Source: Chiloscyllium plagiosum (lineage: Eukaryota). From it: a stretch of 64,000 nt of DNA. Positions 10,861-64,000 of the stretch are shown piece by piece. Position 1 is the first letter of the stretch. Each line of letters begins with the position of its first letter. Under the pieces are notes generated by a model. That model did not search any database. It was not told the origin of the DNA and saw only the letters and a program-made list of their open reading frames with translations. Location of the stretch: NCBI RefSeq assembly GCF_004010195.1, contig NC_057718.1:42422901-42486900 (forward strand), in the 5' to 3' direction. Both the position numbers and the translations under genes were made by a program.

Positions 10861-10864
10861 TGAC

Positions 10865-13359: not shown

Positions 13360-13441
13360 CTGAACCATGCTTCTGAATTCCATTCTGCTACGATAACCTC
13401 TCCATGTTTTCTGAATGATGATTGCAATTTTCTGCACGTAT
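13360..13441 (-). CDS. SPATA17: SPATA17 coding exon 3 (YVQKIAIIIQKTWRGYRSRMEFRSMVQ), second IQ motif, 82 nt
   Basis: Acceptor TTCTTCAAAAG|, donor CAG|GTAAAG. IQKTWRGY motif similar to the recalled human IIQKWWRSF...TVQ. Phase 2 to 0. Confidence 0.92.
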
Positions 13442-20741: not shown

Positions 20742-20831
20742 CTGATATGTGCTCGAATCTTAAACCCTCTGAAACAGCTTTGGATTTTCACAGCAGCGCA
20801 ATGTTCTCGTAATCGGTTTTCTTCTGCAATG
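20742..20831 (-). CDS. SPATA17: SPATA17 coding exon 2 (IAEENRLREHCAAVKIQSCFRGFKIRAHI), first IQ motif, 90 nt
   Basis: Acceptor TTTTTTAG|, donor AG|GTACAG. IQxxxRG motif matching the recalled human AAVKIQSWFRGCQVRAYIR. Phases 2/2 are consistent. Confidence 0.93.
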
Positions 20832-21060
20832 CTAAAAAATAATATTGGTTATGGATACATTATAGCAAGATGGAAGAACCAAATTGCTTTGCTTATATAA
20901 TAAAAAAATAATTTTTTTTTAGAAAATCTCCCAAAATAACAAAAGAAACATTATTTTAAAGCTAGAAATTGCTGGAAACTCTTAGCGGGTGTTGGTATTG
21001 AGTCATAGAGCTAAACAGCATGGAAACACATTCTACAGTTCAATTTGTCCATGTCAACCA

Positions 21061-29049: not shown

Positions 29050-29326
29050 NNNNNNNNNNNNNNNNNNNNNNNNNNNNNNNNNNNNNNNNNNNNNNNNNNN
29101 NNNNNNNNNNNNNNNNNNNNNNNNNNNNNNNNNNNNNNNNNNNNNNNNNNNNNNNNNNNNNNNNNNNNNNNNNNNNNNNNNNNNNNNNNNNNNNNNNNNN
29201 NNNNNNNNNNNNNNNNNNNNNNNNNNNNNNNNNNNNNNNNNNNNNNNNNNNNNNNNNNNNNNNNNNNNNNNNNNNNNNNNNNNNNNNNNNNNNNNNNNNN
29301 NNNNNNNNNNNNNNNNNNNNNNNNNN
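29050..29326. other. Assembly gap (N run)
   Basis: Run of N characters. Confidence 1.
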
Positions 29327-29354
29327 CTCAACCCCCTTTTCCCCCATCCCCTAC

Positions 29355-29390
29355 ATTCCTGATGAAGGGCTCATGCCCGAAACGTTGATT
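29355..29390 (+). ncRNA. Minimal hammerhead ribozyme motif (PLE family A); mirror copy on minus at about 28931-28966
   Basis: CTGATGA-A-GGGC TCAT GCCC-GAA-ACGT-T-GA. Conserved core, stem II and palindromic ACGT stem III; very short stem I. Confidence 0.65.
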
Positions 29391-30348
29391 TTGCCTGTCC
29401 TCGGATGCTGCCTGAATTGCTGTGCTCTTCCAGCACCACTGATCCAGAATCTGGTTTCCAGCATCTGCAGTCATTGTTTTTACCTCGTGTTTTTACCCTA
29501 TCTAATGAATCATAGCCTTGTTCAGCTCGGTGTCTCCATTTCATACTGCTTATTTTAACGAAATTGTTATATTTATCTATTGCCTTTATAGGTTTCCTTA
29601 TTCTATTATAATTTACGTTTTATTAAATCCTCCCACCTCAGTTCCTACTCCTATACATTTTCTTTAGGTTACTAAAGCTCGATGTACCACAAGTTTTTCT
29701 AGTCATCAGGGCACTGGTCTCAACTCACTTAGAGTTTCACCCAAACAAAAACACAGAAATCGCTGGAAAAAAAACTCAGCTGATCTGGCAGTATCTGTGG
29801 AGAGAAAGCAGACTTAGCGTCTTGGGTTCAGTGACCCACTGGAGTTTCTGTTTTTGTTTCAGATTTCCAGCATCCGTAGTTCGTATTTGTCCACCCATTA
29901 CTAAGGAACAGCTCCGTATCTCTACAGTACTCGAATTAATGTTTCCCGAATCAAAACCCATAGATCTCACACCACTCCCTCATCCACATATTTCACTATC
30001 TAATCTGATCTGCCTGCATGTAACAAAATATATTAACTGTGAGGTACTGTATGTTAATTCCAATTCAGCAATAACTCTTCCCACTCAAGTTCCAGTGTCA
30101 AAGCCGAGCAGCCTTCAGGTGCAGCATACGAAAGTATAACATTAATGTCATTCTCGACTATCTTTACTAAGACATTAGCCACATTTTACATAAAGTAGAA
30201 CACAGGACACCAGTTAATCTCTCACGCACACTACTTTTGAAACCATCTTGAGTTGACAGGGGAAGGGGTGCAACTGTAAATAATTCCTCAACGGCAGTGA
30301 AGGTCTTTCTTCTACCCTTTTTTGCATAGTGCTTTCTCCTTTCCTTAC

Positions 30349-30416
30349 CTGTTTCTGCGGAAAAATTCCTCTTCCAGTCCCTGCAGCTGCATCTTCAGCG
30401 TCAACGCAGTCGCCAT
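30349..30416 (-). CDS. SPATA17: SPATA17 coding exon 1 (MATALTLKMQLQGLEEEFFRRN+AG), 68 nt, phase-2 end
   Basis: ATG in AAGATGG context at 30416; donor AG|GTAAGG at 30348. Resembles the human SPATA17 N-terminus as recalled (MATLARLQ...YYFRNS). Splices in frame to the next three exons. Lies head-to-head with GPATCH2, as in human. Confidence 0.9.
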
Positions 30417-31030
30417 CTTTAGTTGTGGCTGTTGCTATGGTTACAGGGCGAGTCCACTGCACCCGCGCAACTCCGAGCAGCGGCTGCAACGAGCAGGCAA
30501 GACACTGAAATCTGATCGTCGTGTTCGTTTTGTTTCGGAATAGCGACAGACACTTTTTAATCTGCCGTCCGGGTTGTCTGGAAACGTGAGGAAAGGCCGA
30601 CGTGGGCCCAGTCGAATGGTTTGGGCCTCCTGCCTCCTTCCGGACGTTGGCTTTTCTCTTCCCGTCGTCCCTCGGGCTGGACATGGTGGCTCCTGGAGTT
30701 CGTTAGGGCCAATGTCTGACAGTTGTGTATTATCGCAGTTGCAGTAGCTAGACTCCTCTTTGAAACACCGTGGATGTTCGCTGCGACGAGCCAACAAGCT
30801 TTGCGTAATCCGGCTCGTGGCTGGTGAGTACCCGACTCCTCAAGCGTCCGTTTCTATCCTACGCGGTGCTTTGGCTCACATGAGTCTGCAGAGCCGGGGC
30901 AAGCGGGGAGGCCCCTGCTACCTGCTTTGCTGCATCTCGTAAGTAACTTCGATCCTTCACATGATCTGGAAGGGATTTTGTTGAAAGTAATATTGCACTT
31001 CTGCATCACCTGCCCCGCCCCCATTTCACT
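30400..31030. promoter_or_regulatory. CpG-rich bidirectional promoter shared by SPATA17 and GPATCH2 (357 bp between the ATGs)
   Basis: Visibly higher CpG density than the AT-rich flanks. RFX X-box-like GTTGCTATGGTTAC (30431-30444) and GTTGTCTGGAAAC (30573-30585). YY1-like CGCCATCTT (30411-30419), ETS-like CTTCCGG (30637-30643), CCAAT (30709-30713), GC box near 31013. Confidence 0.8.
30774..30823 (+). CDS. GPATCH2: GPATCH2 coding exon 1 (MFAATSQQALRNPARG+TG), 50 nt
   Basis: ATG at 30774; canonical donor TG|GTGAGT at 30824. Resembles the recalled human MFGAAGRQ...NSW with a split Trp codon. In frame with the exon at 46184. Confidence 0.85.
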
Positions 31031-31611: not shown

Positions 31612-32760
31612 AATAGACAATAGATGCAGGAGTAGGCCATTCTGCCTTTCAAGCCTGCACCACCATTCAATATGATCATGGCTGATCATCCTTAATCAGT
31701 ATCCTGTTCCTGCCTTATCTCCATAACTCTTGATTCCACCATCCTTGAGAGCTCTATCCAACTCTTTCTTAAATGAATCCAGAGACTGGGCCTCCACTGC
31801 CCTCTGGGGCAGAGCATTCCACACAGCCACCACTCTCTGGGTGACCAAGGTTCTCCTCATCTCTGTCCTATATGGTCTACCCCGTATTTTTAAGCTGTGT
31901 CCTCTGGTTCGGCACTCACCCATCAGCGGAAACATGTTTCCTGCCTCCAGAGTGTCCAATCCTTTAATAATCTTATATGTCTCAATCAGATCCCCTTTCA
32001 GTCGTCTAAACTCAACGATATACAAGCCCAGTCGCTCCAGTCTTTCAGCGTAAGGTAGTCCCGCCATTCCAGGAATTGACCTCGTGAACCGACGCTGCAC
32101 TCCCTCAATAGCCAGAGTGTCTTTCCTCAAATTTGGAGACCAGAACTGGACACAATACTGCAGGTATGGTCTCACCAGGGCCCTGTACAGCTGCAGAAGA
32201 ACCTCTTTGCTTCTATACTCAATCCGTCTTGTTATGAAGGCCAGCATGCTATTAGCCGCCTTCACTACCTGCTGTACCTGCATGCTTACCTTCATTGACT
32301 GGTGTAGCTGAATTCCAGAAGATTAGTCAAGCACGATTTTCCCTTCATAAGTCCAGGCTGACTCTGATCTATCCTGTTACTACTATCCAGATGTGTCGTA
32401 ATTTCATCCTTTATAATAGACTCCAGCATCTTTCCCACAACTGAAGTCAGACTAACTGGTCTATAATTTCCTGCTTTCTCTCTCCCATCTTTCTTAAAAA
32501 GTGGTACAACAATAGCCACCTTCCAATTCGCAGGAACTGATCCCGAATCTATTGAACTCTGGAAAATAATCACCAATGCATCCACGATTTCTCGAGCCAC
32601 CTCCTTCAGTACCCTGGGATGTAGACCATCAGGCCCCGGGGACTTATCAACCTTCGGACCTAACAGTCTCTCCAACACCAATTCCTGGCAAATATAAATT
32701 CCCTTAAGTTCAGGTTCTTCAGCCACTGTTACCTCAGGGAGATTGCTTGTGTCTTCCCCA
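31612..32760 (-). mobile_element. CR1 LINE 3' portion with an internal deletion of the RT core near 32305
   Basis: ORFs 32292-32840 (KSPGPDGLHPRVLKE…CLTNLLEF) and 31696-32295 (LQLYRALVRP…QRVVAVWNALP). Tail (CTATTGT)n. Confidence 0.92.
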
Positions 32761-32859
32761 GTTGGAGTGTGGTCATTTTGTTCCTCATGCAATTTTGTTG
32801 CTTTAAACTGGTAATAAAAAAATGTTGGAAGTATCAACATCTGTGGAGAGAGAAACAGA

Positions 32860-33390
32860 ATTAGTGTTTTCTGGTACCTAAAGAAAGGATATACATTGGT
32901 GGCAGTTCAAAAGAAATTTACTGGGCTCATACCTGGGAAGAAGGAGTTGAATTTATCTTGAATGGCTAAGCAGATTTGATATTAGAATTTAGAAGAATAA
33001 GGGGTGATCTTATTGGAACATATGACCTGTCAAACCCGTCAGAACCTGGTTTGTGGAGAAGATGTTTCCACAAATGGGGAAATCTCAAACTGAGCAACAT
33101 AGAGAATAACAGGAAATTCATTTAATACTTAAACACAAAGGAGTTTCTTCTTCTAAAGGGTAGTGATGTCTGGAATTCTTTACTGCAGACACCTGTGGAG
33201 TCTACCACAGAAAGTATTTATAGGGAAGGTCGATAGCTCTCAATTCCTTAATATTTCATGAATCTTTTGGGAGCTGGTGCAAAAGAGGAGTTAGTCCTGG
33301 AGCAGGTCAGCTATAATCTTTTGGAATGGCTGCAAAGACATGAGGGATTGAATGATGTATTACTGCTCCCATTGCTTATGTTATCTTTTC
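32860..33390 (+). mobile_element. Old CR1 3' fragment
   Basis: Degenerate AVQKKFT…GDL…WNSL pattern. Confidence 0.55.
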
Positions 33391-35319
33391 GTCAGAATCT
33401 GTAATGTTAGTTCTGTTCTCTCTTTAGATAAACTTGTATATTTTTTGTATTTCTATTATAAATTTTTGTATCCAAACTTACAGCATATGTAAACATTCAT
33501 GTTGTCACTACATCTTTCTGCAGCTGGCCTTGCTGAGGTATTATTGGAATATAATTCAAGAATTGCCTTTTCTTCTGAAGTCCTGAGAACATGATATCAG
33601 AACATCTAATGACTTTGTTTTTATAGTTGAAAGGCTTGTTAAACCACCTGATGATAGAAAGACATCATAGCTGTATTTATTATGACTACTGTGATAGCGC
33701 ACTCTAAATTGAGCCCTGCTGAATCTGGAGTCATAACAATTGTTTCTTATAATAAAAATGTACATGGTACCCAATTGGCTAGTTTCCTGACCAAGGTCAA
33801 TTGTCAGCATTTATCAGGTTTTTGTAGTGACCAAGAATTAATATTAATTAGAAGTAATTAGACAATAGCTACAGGTAAAGAGATATAAGCCATTGCCATA
33901 TAATATTACTAACTGAAACTCTAATTGCCTTAAACATCCCATTACACACAAACACAGACAAATAGATAGGGGAAATAGATTATTATTGGAGGTAGAAAGT
34001 CAGTTCAGGGATCTTTGCTTCCTGTTTCTGATGTTGGGGCGAGATAGGCTATTGTTTTTTTTCGAATGAACTGGTTTGTCAGAAGCTCAGAATGGATAGT
34101 CCACTAGTAGAATGCATCTTATTTATTAATTTGAAAGTCACAGCTCACAGCAACTTCTGCAGGAAAAGTCACTGGTTGACTTCAAGTTTAACCACCATTA
34201 TTTACTGCAGAGAACAGGTGACTTTGATTAAAGAGAATAGTTGCATGCATGATTTTCTGTGCGGTTCCACCCTTCTCAGCTGAAAACCAATCAGCTGCAC
34301 ATCGCAGGAATCCACAACTCTAAAAACAGTTCACAACATATATCAAATTCCTTGCCATTAAATTATGCAGCTATCCTGATAAATACCTATTTTTAAAAAC
34401 AGTTATTTCTCATTGCAGTCCACAATTTTTTAGACACACAGAAATAACAAAAGTCAATCCTTATATTTGACACTGACAAATAGGCTCGATAACTGTATGG
34501 CAGAATTTCTAAGAGAGTATTGAATGATTTGATAATAATAACGATGATGTTAGCCTGCATACTGTTATCATAATTGAAAGCCATGACAACATTCCACGAT
34601 AGAGTTTGAACTCACATGCGCATGCATACATACTCATCAAGTTACTAGTTCAGTTCTAAAACCGTAATGCGAACCAGAGCACTAATTCAGTCGTATAGTT
34701 TGATTGATGTTTGAAGTTAATTGCACTCTGGCTGCTAGGAATTGTCTCATTCGGAAACAGCATGTGAGAAGAAAGGTGTTGAACTGCTGGTACCTTAGAA
34801 AGTCTTTAAACTTTGGGAACCAGTTAATTGTTTGTGTGTGCATGGAAGTCCAAATGCATTCTAACACCGGGGAACTGGTCAATGTATGTCAGGAATTTTT
34901 GACAAGAGATGTTGTTTGTATGAATAGAAATTGATAAGCAATTGGTGCAAAGCATAGTGAGAGTTTAAGACATTCAGAAGCCCCTTTTATGGATTGTATT
35001 ATTCATGGTTTTGGGTGACACTGTTAGGAGTAAGTTTATTTTGTGTGTGTGTGTGTTCTACAGTCAGTGCACTTTCATGTGTCTCGGTATGAGTGGGTAT
35101 CAGTGTGTTGTGAAAATGTTTAATGTAATTTGTTACAGGACTAAAACATATCAGGTGGGGGATTATAATGTTAATGCAGATGAATGAGTTGGGGGAAAGA
35201 ATTTTGAATTTGAGAGACTGATAAGCACTTTTATTGCAATTATCATCCAAAAGATGATCCATGTTTATGTATAGGGGTTAAACTTCAAGGTATGAAAGCA
35301 ATAAACAATAGATGGATTT

Positions 35320-36002
35320 GGATGTAGGTTTGCTATCTGAGCTGGAAGTTTCATTTTCAGACGTTTCGTCACCATACTAGGTGAAGTCTTCACTGACCTC
35401 CAGACGAAGCATTGCTGATGATTCCTGTTTTCTATTTATATGTTTAGGTTTCTTTGGGTTGGTGATGTCATTTCCTGTTCTTTTTCTCAGGTGGTGGTAA
35501 ATTGGGTCGAAGTCAATGTGTTTGATGATATTTCCGGTTGGAATGCCATGCTTCTAGGAATTCTCGTGCGTGTCTCTGTTTGGCTTATCCTAGGATGGAT
35601 GTGTTGTCCCAGTTGAAGTGGTGTCCTTCCTCATCTGTATGTAAGGATATTAATGAGAGAGAGAGAGAGAGAGAGAGACGAGAATTCCTAGAAGCATGGC
35701 ATTCCAACTGGAACTCTACCAACAAACACATTGACTTGGACCTGATTTACCACACCCTGAGGAAAAAAAACAGTAAATGACACCACCACACGAAATGACA
35801 CCATCACAGGAAATGACATCATCAACCCAAAGAAACCCAAACATATAAATAGAAAGCAGGAATCATCAGCAATGCTTCATCCGGAGGTCACTGAAGATGT
35901 TACCTAGTACGGTGACGAAATGTCTAAAATGAACCTTCCAGATCAGCGAGCAAACCTACTTCCAGAACATCAGCTTGAGCTACAAATCTTCTCAAAACTC
36001 GC
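35320..36002. mobile_element. Head-to-head PLE family B fold-back around a (GA)n spacer
   Basis: Left arm minus, right arm plus (REFLEAWHSNWNSTNKHIDLD). 14-bp TSD CAATAGATGGATTT (35306-35319 and 36003-36016). Confidence 0.85.
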
Positions 36003-37321: not shown

Positions 37322-37510
37322 GATTTGGAGAAGCTGGCAGTGGACTGGGGTGTACAGAGTTAAAAATCACACAACACCAGGTTATAGTCCAACAGGTTTA
37401 ATTAGAAGCACTGGCTTTCGGAGTGCTGCTCCTTCATCAGGTGGTTGTGGAGTAAGACACTTTGTGAAGGAGCAGCGCTCCGAAAGCTAGTGCTTCCAAT
37501 TACACCTGTC
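37322..37510. mobile_element. PLE family C terminal repeat (minus) with a short inverted plus copy
   Basis: Reverse complement of 61880-62010. 37464-37510 is inverted relative to 37390-37437. Confidence 0.8.
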
Positions 37511-38029: not shown

Positions 38030-38291
38030 AGAGAAAGTGAGGACTGCAGATGCTGTAGATCGGTTCAAGAGTGTGGTGCTGGAAAAGCACAGCAGGTCAG
38101 GCAGCATGTGAGGAGCAGGAGAATCAATGTTTCTGGTATAAGACCTTCATCAGGAATGGGCTTTTATCTGATGAAATTATCTGATTTCGGGCATAAGGCT
38201 TCCTGATGAAGGGCTTATGCCTGAAATGTTGATTCTCCTGCTCCTCGGGTGCTGTCTGACCTGCTGTGCTTTTCCAGCACCACACTCATAC
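38030..38291. mobile_element. Head-to-head PLE family A terminal-repeat fold-back
   Basis: 38069-38154 inverted against 38200-38287. TSD CAATATGGAAAA (38015-38026 and 38292-38303). Confidence 0.85.
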
Positions 38292-46183: not shown

Positions 46184-46888
46184 GCCCTGCAGAGCAATGG
46201 AGGAGCTGGTTCATGATCTGGTCTCTGCTTTGGAAGAAACCTCTGAACACATGAGGGGATGTCCAGAGTTTGGCGATGAAGCATCCCGGAATTCAGCTGC
46301 ATCCCTTCTAAAGCGCCAGGCTAGGAAAAGGAGAGGCAAAAAGAGGAGGTCAGAAAGTGGACATCACATTTGGGAGCATGGCCACTGCATGAGTGAAGGC
46401 TCCGAATCTAGCTTTGATGAGGCAATCCGGGACTACAAAGAAAATAACACTTACAGTGACTCAGATGACCACTTGATAGTTGCCAAACGTCTGTCATCCC
46501 TGAACGTAACAGCCATTAGGGGAAAGCGGCATTCATGGCACGAGTCTGATTCTGTCACCGACAGTAACTTAGGTGGTAGATCTTTGCGAAGGAGAAGGAA
46601 GGTCAAACGTATGGCTGTAGATCCACCAGCAGAGGTCAGTAATGTACTTCACCCACTGCCCCAGGGCAAAGCTCCAGTCTTGGACTTGAACAGACACCAG
46701 GCACAACCAAACCAACTCTGCTTCCAACTCCAAGTCCAGGAGATCAGTAAGGACAAGATCATCAAGAGAAAACGGCTAGAAGTCCCAGATGATGGAGTTG
46801 TTGTGGAAAGTGAAGAAATGTGCAATACAAATAAGAACAAAATGGAGTATGAGGAACAGAAAGGCTCAGATGATAACATGAGTGACAG
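46184..46888 (+). CDS. GPATCH2: GPATCH2 (G-patch domain-containing protein 2) coding exon 2, 705 nt
   Basis: Polypyrimidine tract plus AAG| acceptor; donor AG|GTTATT. Translation includes MEELVHDLVSALEE, KRQARKRRGKKRRS, SDSDD, WHESD, LRRRRKVKRMAVD and KMEYEEQKGSDDNMSD, all matching vertebrate GPATCH2. Confidence 0.96.
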
Positions 46889-49566
46889 GTTATTAAGATT
46901 AAGTTGCAGGTTATCTATGCTGAGACAAGTTTTGTATTTAAATATAACTGCAGGGTTTGAAATACTTTCAGCAGAAGTGCTAGTACTTGTTCACATTAAA
47001 TTTCAAATCTGCACACCAGGGAGCACTCAAGTTGCAACAAAATTGTGGAGTTACAAATAATTTCTGACCACTACTCTTGAATAATCATTTTATTTATTTT
47101 GGCGTTTGGATATAGTGATTTAGATATTAATGTGTATTTGTCAGATATACTTAATCTACTTGGCAATAAATATACATAAACATTCACTACTTCTGTATGC
47201 AGTGATGTAACTGCATGGCTAAAGTATTTCAATCCCTGTACATAACATTTTGTGTACTAATACAAAACTACTGGAGCTGCCATTCAATACCTGTACTAAT
47301 TACAATGATTTCTTTTTAGTGATAATAGGAGAATTCTTTGCAGAATTGTCTTAGTCATTTCAAATGATAGAGTTTTTGGTAAATATTTATCAATAGAAGT
47401 ATTGTTTTTGGTTTTGATTTTCAGGAGGGAAATACATTGTGCTGGGCTGTGGAATAATTACAATCTTTCATGGCTGATCTACTATGTTAAAAACTAAACA
47501 ACAAATTTACCATTGTAATTATCTCATTTATGAAATAGAATTAAGATTAACAAATTAAAGATTTAAAGTTAGGTCCACCATCCACAATGCCAGCATGGTA
47601 ACCAATCATATAGAAAGTGATGATCAGTCTTTGTCAGCTGCTGTGGCCCAACTAATCTTACAATTGTTCAAAGTTATTTATGCTCCATTATTGTGGTGCA
47701 TTGAAGGGCTGTAACAAAACAGGATATTGAAAAGATATTAATGTTTTGTGGAACAATTTTTAAAGTGTTAAAACATGATACCACAACAGCTATGCATTAC
47801 AGTTGTCTAAGTACAACTTACATTCAAGTGAGAGAAGATCTGCTGTCCTATGAGTGATTTATACAGACTCATTTCCCGGCCATATGGAGTAAATAAGCCA
47901 TTGTTTTTATTCTTGCAGGAGGCGAATATAATTGGTTATTTGGGGCAAGGAGGGATTATAATTCTGTTGCATGATTGAATGGCCCATATTTTGCAGTTGT
48001 AATGATAGTAAACCTCTGTGATCACCATCATTACTGCTCTGAAGTTAATTTAATCATTTGGAATCCTCATTTGTATAGCTAAATCCAGAAGTTGCAGAAA
48101 GTGATTCCCCAGAGCGTACACTGTTGAAAGAGCTTTCCCTCGACTTCAATCATATAGAAATCACAAAGTTAATGATAAGTTGCCCTTTTATGCTATTAGT
48201 TTTACTGGAGAAATATTTGAAAATCTTCCGCCACCATATTGAATGATGTAATTGACCTTCTAACAGTTTTTTCATTGATAATTGCTACTAAATAATCTCA
48301 TTCATCCTAAAAGATAGCAGCTTCATATTTATGTCATAGCAAATTTATCCAATTTATTTTAAAATTCATATTTCACAGTAAACAAATGTTTTATTTTATG
48401 TCAACTTCACCCTTAACACCATATGTATGTCCCAACTATTATTTCACTCTCTGTAAAATCTTAATTAAAATTCAGTCCATTTTACTTCCTGATTTGCTGT
48501 TTGAGAATACTTCAATATAATTGGCTGCTTGCCGTGTTTGGTGGCATCTCACTGCTGCTGAAGGCCTGGGGATTCCCTTGAAAATGACCCCAAATTCAGA
48601 ATGATGTTATGAAAGACTTCATGCCCAAATGGCCACTAGATTTTTATAGACAATTATCTTTGAAGTCAGGGCTGAGCATGAAGTCTGGGCCAATGTAATT
48701 ACATTGGATTGTAAATAAGTTTTTTTTCTTTCATTGACTCCTCACACATTGTTCACTACATACTATTTATTGACTAAGAAATTTACCAGTAGTGCTTTGT
48801 AACTTGCTGATTGAAAATCTCAGAGTTGGTGGGTTCGTACTACTTTTTTTCAACTTTAATGAGAACCAACTTTACTATATTTTGCGCTTGCCACAGATCT
48901 ATGTTGGCATCATGACCATGAAGGAAATGTAGCTATTTGGTGATTGCAATTCCATTTTAAAGCATTACCATCTGGCAGTGTCTTCTATTATTCAATTCAA
49001 GCTGATGGAATTGCAGTGTGGTGGCCTTTATCACTAATCTTATCCTATCTGATTCCATACTCCTCTGGCACTTCTTTGAGCTATCAGCTTGTTCCACCTC
49101 TCCCAGTTCTGAGTTGAAGTCTTTATTTTCTCATTGCTCCCCTCAGCTCCATGCTATGTTTTTTCAGCGTAAGCTATTTTCCTTCCTCAGATACTTGAAC
49201 AAGTGACTTCACTCCATTTCAACTCCTGTTTTTCTCTCTTCTGAGTTTACTAAATCTCTCCCATATAAATTCTCCTCCTCCTATTCATAACAATCCCTTG
49301 ATCTGATATGGTTTTGCTAAACCAATATTTTCTTGTGTATTCCCATTGCTTCAATGCTATATAAAATCATCTCTGATAATGCCTTGTGAACTCACAGCCA
49401 TTTTCTGCTTCCTTCAGTGGTGGCCTTAGGGAAGAACTCTTTGTCCAAGTCACCTTTGCAACAATGATTTAAAATTGTTTACTTCCTAACTATTTGCTCT
49501 TCATTCACCATTCTTCCATGCAGTTACTGGTCTGCTCAATCTTACCCTCACCTCAATCTTTTAATG

Positions 49567-49782
49567 GAGAAAGTGAGGTCTGCAGATGCTGGAGATCAGA
49601 GCTGAAAATGTGTTGCTGGAAGAACGCAGCAGGTCAGGCAGCATCCAGGGAACAGGAGAATCGACGTTTTGGGCACAAGCCCTTCTTTAGGCCATTCCTG
49701 AAGAAGGGCTTGTGCCCGAAACGTTGATTCTCCTGTTCCCTGGATGCTGCCTGACCTGCTGCGCTCTTCCAGCAACACATTT
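49567..49782. mobile_element. Head-to-head PLE family A terminal-repeat fold-back
   Basis: About 90-bp arms (49604-49691 vs 49697-49785). Direct repeat TCACCTCAATCTTTTAATG (49548-49566 and 49783-49801). Confidence 0.9.
49694..49730 (+). ncRNA. Minimal hammerhead ribozyme motif (PLE family A)
   Basis: CTGAAGA-A-GGGC TTGT GCCC-GAA-ACGT-T-GATTC. The opposite arm keeps ACGTC but has a mutated core. Confidence 0.65.
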
Positions 49783-50593
49783 TCACCTCAATCTTTTAAT
49801 GCTCTTAACTATGGTAAAACATATACTGTTCCACATTGGTTGTTCACTTTAGCACAACCCCATCATTGCTACCTTAAGTCAAAGAGACACCAATTTGAAA
49901 GTAATAACACATCTATTACCAAACGCCTTTGGACCATGTCTAGTATAATTCTCTGCCAAAGTTCTTTGTTACTGCTCCTCGTTTCTTATTGCTTCAACTT
50001 GGAATAATAAGAACTCATCCAACTACTTCGTTGCCTCCAGCACTCTCTTTAAATCACTTTTGCTTCCCTGTTCGTGTTTCAGCCCTAACACTAAGAATGA
50101 GAAGCTTATAGACTTTGTCACTGAGGTGGAAACCATGCATTCAGCCGCCTATGCTGCACCTGTATTTTCCTCTGGCTCACCAAGCCGCACCCCACCTCTC
50201 CTCATCTTAGCGTTGAAATTGCCTTTATCTCGTTTCTCTCTCATTTAGTCTAAGCTTTTATTCATCTTAGGAGACATGCCTCCTCCTCTCTCAATCCATT
50301 AAATAGCTGGACCATCTTTTCTTCTGTAATCCCATCAGATGCCTTAAATATCTGTCTCATCTGATGTATCTGTCTTGCTTTTGTATTGACCATCTTTGCC
50401 TGTCTCCTCAAATAATCCACCCAGGTGCCATTCATCATTGCTAACTATTGCTCTGTCTCCAACATTCACTTTCTCAGTATCTTGGGAAATAATTCTAAAA
50501 TAGAATATGGAGCTCTGTGTATACTGACAACACCAAGATTTACCTCAGCATCTCATTTGAGCCTTTTAGTGCTATTATATTGTCAGACTATCT

Positions 50594-54409: not shown

Positions 54410-54471
54410 TGAATCCAGCAGCCTCAGCAGTAGTGATGCTGGCTTGTTTACTAATGATGAAGGAAGACAAG
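54410..54471 (+). CDS. GPATCH2: GPATCH2 coding exon 3 ([20 protein letters not shown]), 62 nt; later exons including the G-patch lie beyond the window
   Basis: Acceptor TTTTTCTTATTACAG|, donor G|GTACTG. Near-identical to the recalled human [22 protein letters not shown]. Confidence 0.95.
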
Positions 54472-54770
54472 GTACTGATACTTTTATTTCCCTCTTCAAT
54501 GCAATAGCATTAAATTGCAATTTTGCCTTTAGTAATATGATATCCAGTCTTAGAACTGACCTTTTCTTTTTAAGCCTACCTGTTAAAATAATCTGGGATT
54601 AAATAATTTTCCTCAAATTTTGGCTAGGAGAGAAAAAGAGCATGAAGTGGTCGGATTCAAATTGGTGTAATGTTAAATGTGTGGGTGTTGCTTGTTTTAT
54701 TTGTTTTTCAGTTCCTTGTTTTCCACTGGGAGAGAAGTTTACAAATAAATACCTTTCTAAAAAAAAGAGA

Positions 54771-54880
54771 AGTTGTTGGAAAAGCTCAGCAGGTCTGACA
54801 GCATCTGTGAAAGCAGACCTGCTGGGCTTTTCCAGCAACTTTTGTTTTTATTTCTGATTTACAGCATCTGCAGTTCTTTG
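54771..54880. repeat. Old PLE-derived inverted repeat
   Basis: 27-bp arms at 54771-54797 and 54814-54840. Related fragments at 29740-29885 and 63400-63470. Confidence 0.65.
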
Positions 54881-56969
54881 GGTGTTTACCTTTGAAGTGT
54901 ATCTTTTGATTGTCCAACGTTCTCAACAGTGACCAGCAATAGCTAATTTAATAAAGATTCAAGTCTTGGGCATAGAATATCTTATTATTAGATTTTTTTT
55001 CTCCCACTCCTCCCTCCCTCCCTCCACTTTTTTTTCCTTCCATGAAGTTGGCACTGTGACACTGTCTTCCATCTTTTCCAAATTCAGAATCATTTTGCCA
55101 GGTAATATATTTATCTACTGACATGGATGCACACTGATGCAATGAAATATTCTGCTAGATGTTACACAAGCAAGATATTTAGATCTAATGACTCAGCCCA
55201 AAAAGGTTTCTGCATCTAATACCAAGCTGCTGTATAATGTAAGATGCAACATTTTACAGTGTGTTTGCTCCCCTCCCTTTATTTCACAATTGTGAAAAAA
55301 TGTTGGTAAATACTTTAAGGCTGGTTTTTGAATGACTTCTATATAAACATTATGAGAAAGGGCAGGGTAGTCATGGAGGAAAGCTGGACTAATTGAAGTC
55401 CACTGTTTTCTAGGAGAGGGGAAATCGGAGGGCCAGCCGCCCAGGCCACTCTTGGCACACCTCATCACCGTTTGGCAGCATTGACTGGGGTAGGTGCTTA
55501 GTGTGAAGAGACTCCCTAAGAGGAAATAGATGAGACAAATGCCCCTTTCTCTTTGTAAAACAAAAGGACTGCATAGAAGATAAATAGCAAGTCACCAAGA
55601 AAGATCATGCCTACTTTGTGATGATTTTCTCATGTACCTGTAACCATAGGATAAATTGTGGAATCCTGTTTGCACAAAATGGAAAACTGCTTCTGGACAA
55701 AATGTATCTTTCGTATGTAATGACCACACTAATTGCAATCCTCTCACCCCATAGTTTCTTTGTGTGGTTGGCTGCTTTAGAAGGATATGTGTGAGGTGAA
55801 GTAATGTGGGAGGGGGGGGTGCTTACATAAAGCTAGTCTTGCTTCACTGAATGGACTGTTTCTGTGATGCAAACAATGAAATTCTATGTATCCTATAATT
55901 GCATCATATATTTCCAAGGTTACATACCACGTATTAGAAGACAGATGAGATTTTAAAGCACTTTCACCTTTGTACCATTATGCAGGTGCTGTTTCTGTAA
56001 TATCATGAGGACTCTTTGCTGTAAATTGATCCACTATGTCATAGTTGCAATGGACCAATATTAGGTTCAAATTACAGATCAATCATATTGTTGAACTCTG
56101 TGATTGTGAGGCCTACTTACTGCCTCATACCCTCCCAATTTAATGCCTGGGTAGATCTTTCTGTAAGATGGTTTGTCTTGTGAAGATGATAATCCTTCAT
56201 CACCTTGTAAAGTTTTGATGTAAAAATATTAATTAGCTGTTTTCATATGGCATCATATTAATTGTGTTGAATGGATAGTTCAAAATCTCTATTTTTATGC
56301 TCAATATATTGATACCTGCTGGATAATCTAATGCCTTCCTCGCAGACATTTCAGATACATATCATGTGCAAGTATTTACTGTCAGTTTTTCCAATGAAAT
56401 TCTTATATTTCCACATTTCATATGGAAAATGATTTTTTTAAATGTCACATCATAATTATTACCCTGCTACCAGTTTTTCATCTCCCAGTCAACCCAGTTT
56501 ACAAAATAACTCCTGTTTTGAACAACGCTACTTCTTTGCTTTCCAAATTGGCAGTTTGCTATTTAATTGTACATCTAATCAAAGCATTATATGAAATGAA
56601 AATCGAAGTCCATTTCTTCAATATTAAATACATCTGTTTACCTTAATTGTATTTTCTTCATCCTCTATATATTCATTTCACCTGAAAAATACTGGACTCC
56701 CTGTGTACAACAACACAGGATATTAAAAGTTTTGAATACACTCCACTATATCTTGAATATTGCATTCATGCCCCACAACCTGTGTACCATCTATACTTTT
56801 ATGTGTAATGTTTACACATTGTGACACTCTTGCATATATACAAATTAAGATACAGGTAGAGACTATATTCAAGCATGATGTACAATAGAGAGCACAAGCC
56901 TGTGACTGTATTACTTTTATGTTTGAACTGAAAACAACTATGAGCAAACATGGAAGTTGAGATATAGGA

Positions 56970-57757
56970 TGTATGAGTGTTACATATATATTTGAGTTTG
57001 GATATTGAACTAGTGGCTTGTGAATTTGGTCTGTGTGTATGAGTGTGTTTAATGAATAGTTTGTTAATAATGATGCCTTTTTTAAAAAAAGCAGTATGGG
57101 AGAGAAAATTCCTGGGGTGATGGAAATTTATTTGTATTGGAAGAGTTATACGAGTAAACCCAAGTAAACATTGAGGAGTATTAACTTACTTCACTTTAAG
57201 AAGATTGGAATTTCTTTTTGCTTAGGAGAGGAGAAAAAAACATAGCTCTTGGCTTCAGTTCAGAAGCTGTTGTTGAAGTTAGATGCATAATGTAATGAGT
57301 TAGTTGGAACTTTTAAGAAATAAGTAAATTAGTGTAAGGGTTTTATTGTGAAGGTTCCTGACCAGAAGTGTTTGGTTAGAACTCTTAAGAAGTTATTTAA
57401 AGCTGAGAATGTCTAAGCTCAGTTATGTAACTAGTCAAGGAAGTGGCTATCAAACTTTCAAGACAGGAATTGAAGTTGGTTGTTTGATGTTATTTGGATA
57501 GATCAGATTGTATTTTTTATGGTGTGCTTTGGAATCTTTGAAAATGTGCAGTATGTAAATATCTTAGTTTATTTTATCTTCTGTTCCTTTGCGTAATAAA
57601 TTTCTCTGTTATTCTTACAGCCAACTCCACAGTATTGTGTGCTTGTGTTTCAGTAAAAGCCCATCTCTCTCAATGCTTAAAAAAAGCAAAATATTGTCCA
57701 TCAAACTAGATTTCAGTGCAGGATTAGGCTTGATCTTATATCAGCTGGGATCATACA
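56970..57757 (+). mobile_element. Possible solo LTR (about 790 bp)
   Basis: Termini TGTATGA…TCATACA (7-bp inverted repeat) and AATAAA at 57595. No convincing TSD. Confidence 0.35.
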
Positions 57758-57857
57758 AAGTGCTGGAAATAGAAGCAACCTTTTGTCAGAGGTAGGAAAT
57801 TAGTTTGAAGATGGTACTCACAAGAGAAGTGATAATGTGCATGTGGTGGCATGTGAC

Positions 57858-58195
57858 TAGAATTGTAGAATCCCTACAGTGTGGAAACAGGCCTTTCAGC
57901 CCAAGAAGTCCACAGCGACCCTCCAAAGAGTAACCTACCCAGACCCATTCCCCTACATTTACCTCAGATTAACGCACCTAACCTATACATACTGAACAGA
58001 TGGGCAATTTAGCATGGCCAATTCACCTAACCTGCACATTTTTCGATAGTGGGAGGAAACCGGAGCACCTGGAGGAAACTGATGCAAACACGGAGAGGAT
58101 GTGCAAACTCCACACCAGCAGTCGCCCGAGGCACGAATTAAACCCGAGTCCCTCGTGCTGAGGCAACAGTGCTAACCACTGGGCTATCATGCCAC
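57858..58195 (-). mobile_element. HE1-type SINE
   Basis: Core and head match 8443-8630; CR1-like tail. Confidence 0.85.
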
Positions 58196-59539
58196 TACAT
58201 CATTAGTTAAATGTACCAAAGATCTGTATTCAACTTTTCACTATCTTTATTAGTGACTTTAAGAGAGTCTATATCCAAGTTTTTATTGGCATTAAATGAC
58301 ATTTGAAGATATACAAATGGAAGGAGAAAGTTGCAAAGGGATACTGATAGATTTAATGAATGGGCAAAATCAGCATAAGGAACAATATGGGACAAGATGT
58401 TACCATTTGAGTCTAAGGAAGATGTATCAGGGTATTTTATTTATTAGAAGGGTTGAAGATTTTAGAAGAGCAGTTGGAATTCAGGGAGTCCTTTTATAGA
58501 AGTTACAAAAATTATTGGGCAGGTGTAATAAATTAATGAAAAGACTTGATTTTAGGGGTTTGTGATCATGGTTACTTATATAGGCCATCGATTTGCAATT
58601 AATTTTCTGATAGTTTATTGAGTTTGTTAAGAAACAGCAGTTTAGTTATGATCTTAGTTAGTTAGACAAAGAAAGTATACAACCATGACAACTGGGGGTG
58701 GTTCACTGATACTAATGGGCAAACAGGCTGTCAGTACAAAATATTTTGGTCTTGTTAAATTTGTGGGGACAATTAGGGAATTCTTTCTGAGGTCTTCCTC
58801 CTGTCCTTCTGGTCCATCTTCCATCTGTCTGTTGAGGATTGCTCAATGAAGATTGTTTAAAAAAAACTTCCCTTTGCTATGGCATGGTTACTTCAGCCTG
58901 GAAGTGGCCTGCTGTATTCTTGGTCCCTGTGCAGATCCTCCAGCACAGATCTGACCTAACTCTGGCATGTTTACTCCAGCAGGGAATGTAGTTCGTGACT
59001 TCTCTTCACCCTTCTGTGGCTTTATCAACGCAGATTTGGCGTCCCTAACTTCCTGGCTCCAGCACAGCTATTTCAGCATGGAATTGGCCTAACCCCTAGA
59101 AGCTTCTCCCAGTGCTCCCTGTCCTATGTACTCTGCTCTGAACCTGGCACTTATTTTTATATCATATTTGACATGGCGCAGTTTACCTGCCCCTGTAATC
59201 AGTTGTTTGACCTTTTGGCCATAGGCAATTGACAGCCATTCACGGTGATGGATAGTCATCATTCTCTTGCCTGCCTTCATATGAGGGTTAGTTCTCATTC
59301 TTCTGAAAAGAAATAACTCTTATTTTCAGAAACAGTGTACTGTTAATATGGTACATTTGGCACTAAATAAATTGTTGCTTTTTTAATGTGCATTGTGACC
59401 TCTGTTTCTCATAATGCTTCCCTTTACTTTAATATGCTAAAATTTTGCTCAGCTGTGTACTGCTGTAATAGCTCTTAAATGAAATATCATGATACACAGT
59501 AAATAGAAGGAAAAATTCAGTATTTAAAGCACCCCAATG

Positions 59540-59895
59540 ATCACCAAGGTCTAACGAACATTGACCTTACCCCGAAGCAGATAGAATACAGAAGGATGGA
59601 AGTTTCACTGTAGTTGTATAAAGCTTTGGCTCAACTATATCATGAGTGCTTCAATTCTAGGCACTGCAGTTGAGAAAAGAATATAAGCATTTGAACGGAG
59701 CACAGATTCACAAGAATAATGCCAAGGTTAAATATTTAATTATGAGGACAGGTTACCTAAACTCGTCTTGTATTCTCTCGAGCATACAAGATTTAGTGGT
59801 GATTTAATTGAGGCATTTAAGATGATGAATGGAGTTAGAGATGAAGACACACTATTTTCTCTGGTAGAGAATTGAGAACAAGGAGACATAAAATT
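59540..59895 (+). mobile_element. Old CR1 3' fragment
   Basis: Degenerate IEYR…LYKAL…RFTR…GDLIE pattern. Confidence 0.55.
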
Positions 59896-60314
59896 ACATC
59901 TGCCAGGAAGCACTCTTTACCACTGCCAATGGTATTAATCCAACTATGTGAGAGTGGCTGCTATGTGGTAAGCATGACAATAAAACCTAAGCAGAGTTGT
60001 TTGCTAAGTTTCTGGAATGAGTCCCTTATTCAATGGCGCTTAGTACCTGATTAAGGGTACAACATCAGGGAGGGAGAGACTGCTGAGAGGTACCTCTGTA
60101 ATGACTCATTGAATGACTGCTAGAAATCGAGCCCAATTATTCTACAAGGTGGATTAAAAATCCTATTCAATCACATGGTAAATGGTAAATTTGTTTGTCT
60201 TTATTACTGAAAACTAAAACAGAAGAGACGTTCACCCGGCCTTCTAATAAACTCATAAGTGACATGTTTATTATAGGCAAACTTGTTCTAAAGCGAGTGA
60301 TGCAAATTAAACTA

Positions 60315-61088
60315 CACCTTTGGTGCTATGTCCAGTATTGTTTTTCATTTACATCAATGATTTAGATGAGAATTTAGGAGGCATGTTGGCAACTGAAGTT
60401 TCTGGATGATGCCAAAATTAGTGCTATAGTTGACCGTGAAGAAAGCTATCTTACTTAACAAAGGGATCTTGGATCAATTAGGCCAATGTGTTGAGGAGTG
60501 GCAAGTTGAGTTTAATTTAGATAAATGCAATTTTGCATTTTGGTAAAATGAACAAAGACAGGACTTATACAGTTAATGGTAGGGCCCTGAGTAGCATTGT
60601 CGAGCAGAGGCACCAAGGGGGTCAGGTACATAGTTCTTAACAAATTACATCACAGGTAGACAGGGTAGTTAAGAAGGCATTTAGCATGCTTGTCTTTGTT
60701 GCTCAGACCATTGAGTACAGGAGTTGGGATTTTATGTTGAGATTGTAGAAGACGTTGGTGAGGCCTCTTCTGGATTATTGTGTGCAGTTCTGGTCGTCCT
60801 TCTATAGGAAGCGTGTAGTTAGGTTGGGGAAGGTGCAGAAAAGATTTACCAGGATGTCGCTGGGACTGGAGGGTTTGAGTTGTAGGATGAGGCTGGATAG
60901 GCTGTGACATTTTTCACTGGAACGTAGGAGATTGAGGGGTGGCAGTATAGAGGTTTATAAAATCATGAGGGGCATAGATAAGGTGAATAGAAAGGTCTTT
61001 TCCCTAGTTTGGGGGACTTAAAAAGTATTGTTAAGATGAGAGGAGAAAGATTTAAAAGAGACTTGTGGGACAACTTTTCATACAGGAT
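60315..61088 (+). mobile_element. CR1 RT/3' fragment
   Basis: YINDLDE, DDAK, YCVQFWS…RK…VQKRFTRM motifs. Confidence 0.8.
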
Positions 61089-61091
61089 GCT

Positions 61092-61385
61092 TTGTCCATT
61101 GCACCCTGTGTGGTCTCTTCTACATCGGGGAGACAGGGCGCCTTCTTGCGATCGTTTCAGAGAACATCTCTGGGACACCTGCACCCGCCAACCCCACCGC
61201 CCTGTGGCTGAACACTTTAGCTCCCCCTCCCACTCCATCAAGGACATGCAGGTCCTGGGCTGCCTCCACTGCCAAACCATTACCATCTGACGCCTGGAGG
61301 AGGAACGCCTCATATTCCACCTTGGGACCCTGCAACCACACTGAATAAAAGTGGATTTCATCAGCTTCCTTTTTTCCCTTCATCC
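61092..61385 (+). mobile_element. PLE family A GIY-YIG fragment fused to the preceding CR1
   Basis: CGLFYIGETGR…FREHLWD…VAEHFSSPSH, homologous to 11930-12170. Confidence 0.85.
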
Positions 61386-61879
61386 ACATTAGACCAATCC
61401 TAAGCCTCCAACTAAATCCCCCATAAACAGTCATCAGTAAATACCACACTGCTACAGCACTTTCTTAGCTAAATTCACGGTGTTCTTAATAGTGCAGATG
61501 CCAAGGAGATTCATTTATTTGATTCCTTTAATAAACCTTATTAAATGCTGTGGCCGGCTCTGGCAGATAGTCATAGAATTGTCCAATTCACCGTCACTGT
61601 TCGAATCCTACCTTCAACATTTTAGCCCGGTTTTATTAATGCTCTTGCATGCACCTAGCTCCTTGTGAATTTGTTTTTCCTGTTCTTCTCTCAACCATCC
61701 CCCGATACATCTTTCCTTTATACCTCCATTTTGTCTGCAGACTATGTGCCCTTTGTATGGTAACTTCCTTCTAGTTGGTACTGCTTCCAAGGTTATCGTG
61801 GCGCAGCAATTGTTATTCGAGAAAATAACAATTTCTCCCTTTTCAGTTGATGCAAATTCTTAAGAGTCCTTTTTACTTA

Positions 61880-62012
61880 TACTCCACAACCACCTGATGA
61901 AGGAGCAGCGCTCCGAAAGCTAGTGCTTCCAAATAAATCTGTTGGAGTTTAACCTGGTGTTGTGATTTTTAACTTTATACACCCCAGTCCAACACTGGCA
62001 TCTTCAAATCAT
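61880..62012 (+). mobile_element. PLE family C terminal repeat
   Basis: Homologous to 37322-37452, 6339-6477 and 28683-28765. Confidence 0.8.
61891..61925 (+). ncRNA. Apparently intact minimal type-I hammerhead ribozyme motif
   Basis: CAC-CTGATGA-A-GGAGC AGC GCTCC-GAA-AGCT-A-GTG. Stem I CAC/GTG, complete core, 5-bp stem II, palindromic AGCT stem III, UA cleavage site. Confidence 0.75.
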
Positions 62013-64000
62013 AAATTTGCAATAGTTAATTTTTAATTTTTTCAATTATTTTCTATTTAATATATCTATTTAGGAGTTAATAACTAACATTCAAGTTTTG
62101 ATAACCAAATCAGTAATAATTGATACATTGTCTTAAACTGAAAGACAGTAATACTGTTGAACAGTTCTAGTTCATAATTTGCCAATGGTAATATCCAAAC
62201 TAGTTCTGTTTGTCTACATTGGGTTAATTTGCTTGTTTGATCATTCTTCAAAATAACATTTAAACATATTTTTAAAGGCATAAATTATTTGTAGATCTTT
62301 TACTGAAAAGAAATGCATTTTATCAAAGCTTTTCATCTTGCGCTCATCAAGACAATTTGCAAGAATACAAATTTAAGGGGTAAACCAACCTTTATGTTGC
62401 ATGAAAACATGAGTGCTGATTGGTTGGCAGGTCAACTCTGCTAGAGGAATTGTCGTGGAGGATACACCCATTAATGTTGATTTGACCGTTAACTGCAAGC
62501 TATGATGTCAACAATGAGTCTTGGATTCAACTAGATACGAAGACTTCATATGTGATGTAATTGTAAAATATCAACAATGCAATGAAAATCCCCAATTCAG
62601 CATAATATAACACACTAACTCGAGATTATAAGAAATGGAAAAAATTCGATAGGTGTAGCTCATAATGTCCTGAGGTTGTCATTAAAACTCGTCTTTGGGA
62701 AAGTACAAAGCCAGCTTCGTTATACATATAAATACCATATAAACTTATACCTTAAGCAACATAAAATTCTGATTAAATCAGGTAAATTGACTCTGATTAG
62801 TCATGCCATTGTGGTGAGAAATGAATCAGAGTGGCTATCACCTGTTTTGTTGAGTTAAAGCAGGCTCAACGTGAGTACCTGCTCTTACTGTCTGCATATA
62901 AAGTCTATTTACCAGTCTTTGAGATGTGCAGTCAATATCCTTGATATTACCCTGTCACTGAATTTCATATATCCTGTTACCCATTTGAATTACAGGTGGA
63001 ATGTCTTTTTGGCTTGACAGTACTATTCTTTTACTGGACAGTAGGAACTTGAAATGGCTAGTTTCACCTGTTGTCCAAATATTTGTAATTTATTAACCTT
63101 CCACTGTAATATAAAGCAGATGATTTTTGAGGCTAAGAGTGGCCACCTTAGTACTTTTTAGGATAAGATGTTTCCCTTGTACCAAGCAAAGTACTAAGCA
63201 CACCCAACCAGCCCATGCTTGCGCAACTTGCAATGCAGGGCCCAATTCTGCAATCAGACAGTTTTTGCTGGATAATTCTGAATCTGTGTGTGAGGAATTA
63301 TGCTGATAATCAATTTTAAGATTGTCAGTCAAACTCGCAATGTGATACCTTTGGATGCACTTAAAGTGACCCATATTAATACACAGGACCCAGAACATTA
63401 ACTTTTCTTTCTCTCCACATGCTTCCAGACCCTAATGAGTTTTTCCAGCATTTTCTGTTTTTCTTTGTGTTTGTACATGTGGTGTGTCTCTTTCAGCTTG
63501 TTCATTTGAGAATCATGCCCGGTATTATCAAGAGTCAACATGCCTGATTTAAATTTTAAACAAACCTTGTCAGTTAACAATCAATTGCATTAACGGGTGC
63601 ATTTTTCCTGGCATTGCCTCGAGCAGTCAGCACTCCTGACATGCACTGTTGCTTTCCCTTGAATTGGCATTCTTGTGAATTGTCCTGATGAGTGAAAAAT
63701 GAAAAAGTAAAATGAAAAAAAAAACTCAAGTTTTGTACTACCAAACAGGTACTTGTCTAACTCTCTAAAAGTTTAATTTACTATTCTAATGCTGTAGTTG
63801 TGTAGCTATTTCCAAACATCATATAAATTTTGACCTTAAGCAATATTAAGTTCTGATGTGGGATTCAAAACTTCACTGATTTTTATGATATGGAACATGT
63901 AGAACAGCTTACAGCTAATTAATGAGTGACCTTACGCTTGGGTTGTTGCCTTCAAGGCATGCTTCCACCTAGTTTAGTTTTTATGCACTTTCTTTAGTAA

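Follow-up and report, generated by a model that had tools for sequence, protein, structure and literature searches.

A complete minimal hammerhead, predicted to be inert, in a likely Penelope-like repeat of GPATCH2 intron 3, and a used poly(A) site just past the predicted hammerhead cut in RNAs of the same repeat family

Intron 3 of GPATCH2 carries a complete minimal hammerhead motif. Very probably it is part of a truncated, very abundant repeat, likely the 3' end of a Penelope-like element (PLE), and it is predicted to be inert in the GPATCH2 pre-mRNA. This kind of hammerhead has been known since 2014 (PMC4209133, Cervera and De la Pena 2014; all papers are cited from their accessible parts). 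New here is a used poly(A) site in the terminal repeat of the same family (family C), just past the predicted hammerhead cut: family-C RNAs, which may be transcripts of the element or of host genes alike, are polyadenylated 28-30 nt past the predicted cut. By the window we mean the whole stretch of DNA analysed, 64 kb long; the coordinates of the features are collected in Table 1.

The motif, read from the sequence, is a 35-nt minimal type-I hammerhead on the + strand at 61891-61925, and its letters are those written in the initial annotation. Both this copy and the family-C majority contain the complete core set of the minimal hammerheads or min-HHR (C3 U4 G5 A6 N7 G8 A9; G12 A13 A14 A15.1 ... 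U16.1 H17), and the extra nucleotide, the G10.1-C11.1 pair, the palindrome at 15.1-16.1 and the short helix I are all present. The proposed assignment to the minimal type-I hammerheads of the PLE kind agrees with the published consensus, NNN CUGANGAH GNNNNN...C GAAAN-palindrome-NUH NNN, for min-HHRs in pLTRs of metazoan PLEs (PMC4209133). The likeness covers type I, CUGANGA with the extra nucleotide, G10.1-C11.1, GAAA-palindrome-UH and the short helix I, as well as the occurrence of mostly single truncated copies with some close opposite-strand pairs. Fig. S3 of that paper shows rows whose helix I is of 3 bp, with a GC palindrome and an extra A, and a viroid precedent for the extra nucleotide is cited there as well; the difference is that no shark is among the 56 rows, the names shark, Callorhinchus, Chiloscyllium and Leucoraja all being absent from supplement file 2.

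The hammerhead is sense to GPATCH2 and lies 7.4 kb inside intron 3, hence its initial placement is borne out by exon mapping, provided that the gene has no non-coding first exon. The exons were mapped with protein P0001, the G patch domain-containing protein 2 of Chiloscyllium punctatum, which is 100% identical to the window at 46200-46889; its genus is safer than its species, because the proteins are clustered at 90% identity.

When the window was compared with itself by BLAST, the hammerhead position was found in 18 copies, nine in family A, four in family B and five in family C, which agrees with the initial report of at least three hammerhead-bearing families. Nine copies are sense and nine antisense to host genes, five of the nine within GPATCH2 being sense. 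The intact layout that had been ascribed to the other copies holds in part: the core is kept in eight of the 18, but only four (28961-, 29359+, 49698+ and 61894+, the last being the copy under study) keep stem II and the palindrome as well, and 61894 is the only one (1/18) with three contiguous stem I pairs in addition. A palindromic tetramer is not common to all of them, contrary to what had been claimed, as family-A copy 12327 has lost G12 and A15.1, and copies 38203 and 35891 read AUGU, which is no palindrome.

Table 1. Features of the hammerhead, of its repeat family, of the related copies and of the host gene (positions in the window).
Feature	Position	Strand	Basis
Stem I, 3 bp	61891-61893 with 61923-61925	+	Sequence
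Core C3-A9, CUGAUGA	61894-61900	+	Sequence
Extra A between A9 and G10.1	61901	+	Sequence
Stem II, 5 bp with 3-nt loop; G10.1-C11.1 = G61902-C61914	61902-61914	+	Sequence
G12-A15.1, GAAA	61915-61918	+	Sequence
Palindrome AGCU in place of helix III	61918-61921	+	Sequence
H17 = A61922, predicted cut site	61922	+	Sequence
Predicted competing hairpin, which sequesters the palindrome and the stem I 3' strand and whose loop holds the cut site	61917-61928	+	Folding prediction
AAUAAA poly(A) signal, 9 nt past the predicted cut	61932-61937	+	Sequence
Passage into poly(A) in RNAs of other family-C copies	61950-61952	+	X8 reads
GU/U-rich stretch, placed like a downstream polyadenylation element (putative)	61953-61970	+	Sequence
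Family-C copy, 136 bp, 5'-truncated 3' end, likely pLTR and tail of a PLE	61876-62011	+	Read and contig depth, loose ends
AC-rich end of about 35 bp, likely the PLE 'tail', in some copies only	61977-62011	+	Alignment
Back-to-back family-C pair, core broken in both	37322-37454, 37465-37509	-, +	BLAST, descriptor
Back-to-back pair of a family-C-related subfamily, core broken	6340-6476	both	BLAST, descriptor
Family-C-related copy, core kept, stems broken, AAUAAA at equal offset	28683-28760	+	Sequence
Family-A copy, broken RT and GIY-YIG ORF, then hammerhead position 12327	10862-12401	+	
Back-to-back family-A pair, GPATCH2 intron 2; + copy 49698 keeps core, stem II and palindrome	49580-49778		
Back-to-back family-B pair, GPATCH2 intron 1; 35891 keeps the core, without palindrome or stem I	35319-36000		
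Further back-to-back copies	38042-38283		BLAST
GPATCH2 coding exon 1	30774-30823	+	tblastn of P0001; donor site
GPATCH2 coding exon 2	46184-46888	+	100% to P0001
GPATCH2 coding exon 3	54410-54471	+	tblastn of P0001
GPATCH2 intron 3	from 54472, beyond the window end	+	Exon 4 outside the window

Four of 18 listed sequencing runs were aligned to 61590-62310 at a likeness threshold of 84%, which favours intact family-C copies. The library type of run X4 is unrecorded, run X2 bears another organism label, and run X8 consists of raw RNA reads. The alignments comprise 28,104 contigs from X4, 5,662 from X1 and 5,830 from X2, and 2,766 raw reads from X8. The aligned depth is restricted to 61865-62014, with nearly all of it within 61876-62011; in X4 the summed depth, which is not a copy number, reaches 4.0e6 across the motif vs 6.7-13.9 in the flanks. 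The loose ends before 61876-61882 continue into a common upstream sequence (agreement 0.5-0.92), and thus the copy is 5'-truncated, while those after 62010-62012 have no sequence in common (agreement 0.37-0.44), and thus the element ends there, 88-90 nt past the predicted cut. One X4 contig crosses the left junction of the copy with zero differences. The copy is 86% identical to that at 37322-37454; no clear target-site duplication was seen around it, its flanks having only the word TTTTTA in common. The AC-rich end is optional: copy 6394+ stops before it, and copies 37454- and 6395- continue through it. Five copies in 64 kb correspond to 78,000 per Gb, and from this density and a shark genome size that we take to be several Gb, alongside the depth, the family-C copy number would be of the order of 100,000. 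This appears to be far above the 4,000 and 9,000 copies given for coelacanth and Xenopus in PMC4209133.

Family C is likely a PLE family by its structure, rather than by an ORF, the features of PLE insertions present in it being 5' truncation, inverted partial copies and an optional 30-40 bp tail. PLE insertions are described with 5' truncation, an inverted pLTR and a 30-40 bp tail (PMC8557442, PMC3846280), and the family resembles them in its truncated ends, back-to-back pairs and optional tail, although the copy at 61876-62011 differs in having neither an inverted partner nor a clear target-site duplication. Against the preferred explanation, no RT or GIY-YIG piece lies beside any family-C copy in the window, and this motif is the sole intact one of 18. 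A search of the window for the upstream family-C motif gave no matches, with 0.86 expected. Pattern scans for family C found none in viral contigs and none in metagenomes; a shorter pattern matched two metagenome loci (L001 6001-6023; L002 437-456), which have only 20-23 nt in common with it, and these were discarded as chance.

Evidence of a coding part comes from family A and, more weakly, from family B. Family A has an ORF with RT and GIY-YIG upstream of the hammerhead, where 10862-12167 aligns to proteins P0121 (tblastn E 4e-131) and P0123, the Pfam matches being below the cut-off both for the copy at 10862-12401 (GIY-YIG, E 0.003) and for P0121 itself (GIY-YIG, E 2.5e-4; RVT_1, E 0.008). 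In family B, 15669-15794 matches the RT part of P0123 (E 4e-5) with no Pfam match, and the translation upstream of 23633(-) is, by eye, presumably GIY-YIG-like. A GIY-YIG fragment at 61058-61359, 500 bp from the family-C copy, is 76% like family A; it has no hammerhead end and directly follows a LINE-like fragment at about 60500-61070.

Instead of being the end of an autonomous PLE, family C could be a retrozyme- or SINE-like element that is non-autonomous and depends on PLE proteins for its movement, in which case the hammerhead and its inertness would read alike. The lack of a linked ORF in the window and the very high copy number would suit such an element, and animal retrozymes are reported to derive from PLEs and to occur in one chondrichthyan (bioRxiv 10.64898/2026.07.22.740005). 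Retrozymes, however, form head-to-tail arrays, whereas only one of the 15 family-C joints listed (there are 22 further joints) is head-to-tail, stepping back by a unit length, and 11 of these 15 link opposite strands. Also, BLAST of the window on itself gave no head-to-tail tandem copies of the family, and the motif is a minimal, not a canonical, type I hammerhead. Hence we consider a non-autonomous element unlikely.

If, as we prefer, the parent of family C was a Penelope-like element, the start of reverse transcription would have been some 90 nt 3' of the hammerhead, like that of the anole element. Synthesis would have halted after 136 nt, leaving a stump in the AT-rich intron DNA. Selection on the parent element would have kept the ribozyme, two copies and probably the protein of the element making up the active dimer; any activity of the ribozyme would then be that of a dimer, assisted by protein, in the tandem transcript of the parent. 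The copy at 61876-62011 would have been drifting since its insertion and would be intact by chance. The poly(A) signal would have ended the parent mRNA, and dispersed sense copies could end transcripts running through them.

A close system for comparison is PAc, the Poseidon element of Anolis carolinensis, which was cleaved only with the protein of the element (PMC11167929, Frangieh et al. 2024). Counted from the beginning of its ORF, the cut is at 26 nt and RT starts at 111-118 nt, by our computation about 85-92 nt apart, vs 88-90 nt from the cut to the element end in family C. The two also are alike in having the hammerhead in the pLTR, an AT-rich target and no cut-end reads, since none of the PAc RNA-seq reads began or ended at its cut either (PMC11167929). 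They differ in that PAc is of full length, with the ORF start inside the hammerhead, while the family-C copy is a stump in which the AUG inside the hammerhead core opens a frame that stops after eight codons. Besides, cleavage of PAc, with protein only, has been demonstrated (PMC11167929).

The family-C majority, which keeps the core whose lack from the family consensus the initial annotation had made part of its refutation test, is identical to the present copy at all 35 motif positions. Inside the motif, the places where the family varies in at least 8% of depth are 61891, loop II, 61910-61911 and the CpG 61914-61915. G12 is changed to A in 12.5-16.5% of depth, and the guanine of the loop CpG is changed in 11.8-16.1%; with about 13-17% vs about 12-16% lost, the dispersed family-C copies lose G12 at the background CpG rate. 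The copy at 61876-62011 has seven differences from the family majority, all of them 3' of the motif, the chance of none falling inside being 0.11, and zero changes in 61882-61937. This unchanged stretch mildly counts against mere drift of the copy, and a domestication reading could use it, but the copy had been picked for being intact.

Conserved hammerheads are known from the amniote introns of RECK, CTCL and DTNB, and another from the Clec2 3' UTR (PMC6155905, PMC6765202). Domesticated intronic hammerheads of the RECK type have canonical helices with tertiary contacts and act as monomers. The present motif resembles the RECK type in its position on the sense strand of a host intron, and the Clec2 hammerhead, as that of family C, is cut upstream of a poly(A) signal. 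These are, however, self-sufficient motifs of canonical or discontinuous form, each confined to one locus and shared between species (PMC6155905, PMC6765202), whereas the family-C motif is minimal, belongs to a repeat of high copy number and shows no sign of being under selection at this locus; it has no helix III, and its helix I is of 3 bp and its loop II of 3 nt.

The initial annotation had described the motif as unpaired and, for this reason, as the best candidate for activity in a host pre-mRNA. The former is correct, since neither strand of the visible intron (54473-64000) contains a second family-C copy. The latter is not supported, since helix III requires a second copy and, by prediction, the cut site is hidden in a competing hairpin once flanks are present. 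In the isolated 35-mer, the predicted probability of stem I is 0.85-0.89; with at least 26 nt of the 3' flank it falls to 0.014-0.017, with the active fold at about 1.5%. The competing hairpin has pair probabilities of 0.48-0.87 in four contexts, and the A15.1-U16.1 pair in the monomer has a predicted probability of 0. The double hammerhead lies above the best inactive dimer by 9.2 and 10.2 kcal/mol in two short constructs and by 23 kcal/mol in the 76-mer, in a nearest-neighbour energy model that leaves out Mg2+ and proteins. Based on these predictions, the hammerhead at 61891-61925 would be inert in the GPATCH2 pre-mRNA. As possible partners, the family-A copy 49698 was rejected, since ACGU and AGCU cannot pair, and so was copy 37465, which is without the 5' core and lies 24 kb off in intron 1, opposite an inverted copy. 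A distal helix, 61881-61886 with 61943-61948, was likewise dropped as a family feature, since it depends partly on the letter at 61947, which is unlike the family majority.

The RNA reads of run X8 stem from other loci: 99% of them continue into unlike flanks, and the flank depth is 0. Two in 100 of the run were read, yielding the 2,766 family-C reads among 12.96 million records, and a few loci may dominate. About 1,700 main-direction reads cover the core and run uncut through the cut site, where X8 reads neither begin nor end in any accumulation. The missing cut ends are weak evidence, because a 3' cleavage product of 30 nt would drop out of a library that is primed on poly(A) and selected by size. 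The share of copies with a dead G12 is 12.5% in X8 RNA vs 16.5% in X4, i.e. there is no enrichment among the uncut RNA. These reads are a family-wide in-vivo hint that minimal hammerheads stay uncut when transcribed outside the element, which bears on the function of PLE hammerheads.

A latent ribozyme that cuts the GPATCH2 pre-mRNA, alone or in trans with family-C RNA, would be in keeping with this being the only copy of 18 with the core, both stems and the palindrome, with its sense orientation in GPATCH2, and with the commonness of the family RNA (2,766 of 12.96 million X8 records), so that partners exist. The published results speak otherwise, single min-HHR motifs showing no cleavage and dimers little (PMC4209133), and PAc needing its protein (PMC11167929). 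The same holds for the disfavoured predicted fold with no partner in 54473-64000, for the reads uncut across the site with no enrichment of G12-dead copies, and for the sense copies, which are not depleted in GPATCH2. We regard such cutting as very improbable. Of the initial suggestion that the introns are seeded with latent ribozymes, the many copies stand, while activity in the host is unsupported by the fold and the uncut reads.

What the RNA reads do contain is a poly(A) site. In 779 of the 2,766 X8 reads the loose end behind 61946 has a consensus (agreement 0.83) of four letters of the family followed by an A-run, hence poly(A) begins about 14 nt after AAUAAA. This position is 28-30 nt from the predicted cut, with about 60 nt still to go to the element end. 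The A-run loose ends have a median of 72 letters, which presumably fits the poly(A) tail plus the cell barcode of such libraries. In 486 further X8 reads, of a subfamily with AUUAAA, the 30-letter consensus ends in AAA vs AAC in the X4 and X2 contigs, which is weaker evidence, with just three As visible. The DNA-type contigs proceed with family sequence at 61950-61952 and have no A-run; therefore internal priming is unlikely, the check covering the loose-end rows listed (there are 667 further), so that some copies with a genomic A-run are possible. The depth agrees with the end position: X8 main-direction depth at 61965-61989 is 0.17 of that in the core, vs 0.60 in X4 and 0.65 in the other direction, the core coverage in X8 being 4.8 to 1 for the main vs the other direction. 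The only common variant of the hexamer is AUUAAA (A>T at 61933; 19-28% of depth in each of the four runs), and its other positions have no change in at least 8% of depth. Metazoan poly(A) sites have a downstream element, and the GU/U-rich stretch listed in Table 1 is placed like one.

The present copy keeps AAUAAA intact, but two of its differences from the majority of the family, 61947 and 61949, directly precede the poly(A) position, and its GU-rich stretch has lost 2 nt. The host might have taken up this insertion as a poly(A) site inside the intron, so that some of the GPATCH2 transcripts would stop past exon 3, with the hammerhead as a bystander; the predicted product would comprise residues 1-273 of 468, without the G-patch end. 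Such use would draw on the intact AAUAAA and GU-rich stretch, on the use of the same site in RNA of other copies, and on the transposon-derived poly(A) sites known in mammals (PMC2553571, Lee, Ji and Tian 2008). Against it, no X8 reads cover the flanks of the copy (2 in 100 of the run read), the letters before the poly(A) position and in the GU-rich stretch have changed as described, nine other AAUAAA words precede 61932 in intron 3, and the distance of 7.4 kb from exon 3 would call for a long read-through last exon. Hence we hold use of the site by the host for highly improbable. The use of the site in the family makes premature polyadenylation a likelier effect of the copy on GPATCH2, if there is any, than self-cleavage, the reads from the locus being zero for either.

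The pairing of a hammerhead with a poly(A) signal varies among families. In family B, AAUAAA is present in one and AAUGAA in two of the three copies checked, and in family A none of the eight copies has a hexamer near the cut, which counts against a universal pairing. In Fig. S3 of PMC4209133, AAUAAA or AUUAAA occurs, by eye, at most 15 nt past the cut in 11 of 56 rows and in none of the 56 in the 15 nt before the core, the two flanks differing in composition; in the turtle row AAUAAA directly follows helix I, as in family C. The accessible text of that paper calls the 3' flank 'AU-rich' without naming a poly(A) site. A literature search for a PLE poly(A) site, blind to the bracketed spelling and to subscription journals, found no passage; the algal Chlamys element has polyadenylated transcripts with a presumed terminator, as far as the accessible account goes. 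As in the mammalian cases of PMC2553571, a transposon end is here the source of AAUAAA and of a putative downstream element, which RNA of the host cell makes use of; the section titles of that paper name DNA, LTR, L1, L2/MIR and Alu elements, PLEs being absent from them.

We tentatively suggest, with considerable doubt, that the terminal repeat of PLEs works as a 3'-end module with two switches, in which a working poly(A) site lies 28-30 nt behind a dimer-gated hammerhead, and that this pairing may be widespread in animal PLEs. If so, polyadenylation would end the element mRNA, cleavage would strip the tail or free the ends for circularisation, and only read-through transcripts would contain the RT start, which lies about 60 nt beyond. 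The shark copies, on the order of 100,000, would then act as portable poly(A) sites, reshaping the 3' ends of transcripts and causing selection against those copies that are sense in introns. As the poly(A) site lies upstream of the 3' end of the element, polyadenylated RNA cannot template tail-bearing copies, and hence the poly(A) position is a testable constraint on PLE replication.

It remains to consider a chance match. The strict descriptor has a single match in the 64-kb window, at 61891-61925, which is weak alone, because at least one match was reached in 14 of 300 block-wise dinucleotide shuffles; the fold z-score of the motif is only -1.14, and an Rfam covariance search of the 64 kb gave no hammerhead family up to E = 5. 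The descriptor without stem I, on the other hand, has six matches in the window vs a mean of 0.024 and a maximum of 1 in 500 shuffles, and the layout is common to three unrelated families with different stems; this excess and the core of the family-C majority refute a chance origin, the probability of which is negligible.

Several of the remaining copies deserve mention. The + copy 49698 of family A is intact and sense in GPATCH2, and the pair at 49580-49778, to which it belongs, would make a long hairpin. The letters of 49548-49565 recur at 49783-49800, which may be a target-site duplication of 18 bp around this pair. At 28919-29401, two 97% identical family-A ends, both keeping the core and the palindrome, face apart across a 277-base N gap (29050-29326), and may be either a young inverted pair or an assembly artefact. 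Palindromic repeats without a hammerhead, related to the 3' part of family A, occur at 54759-54900, 29747-29882 and 63416-63477; a MIR408 match at the first of them (E 0.065, weak) was set aside, as the likeness is that of a hairpin only.

Regarding the other genes, a scan of the window for bacterial promoters and terminators gave nothing exceeding chance and is irrelevant to shark DNA. Two exons with IQ motifs on the - strand (13327-13491 and 20726-20848) have SPATA17 as their best match (E 4e-4 and 6e-3), thus the left half of the window likely lies inside a divergent gene, the SPATA17-like exons being head to head with GPATCH2 around 30200-30800. Broken LTR-retrotransposon-like RT and integrase pieces are seen by eye at 6564-8254, and long broken LINE-like frames with RT and endonuclease, which we take to be CR1/L2-like, lie in introns at 24621-27336 and 31696-32906.
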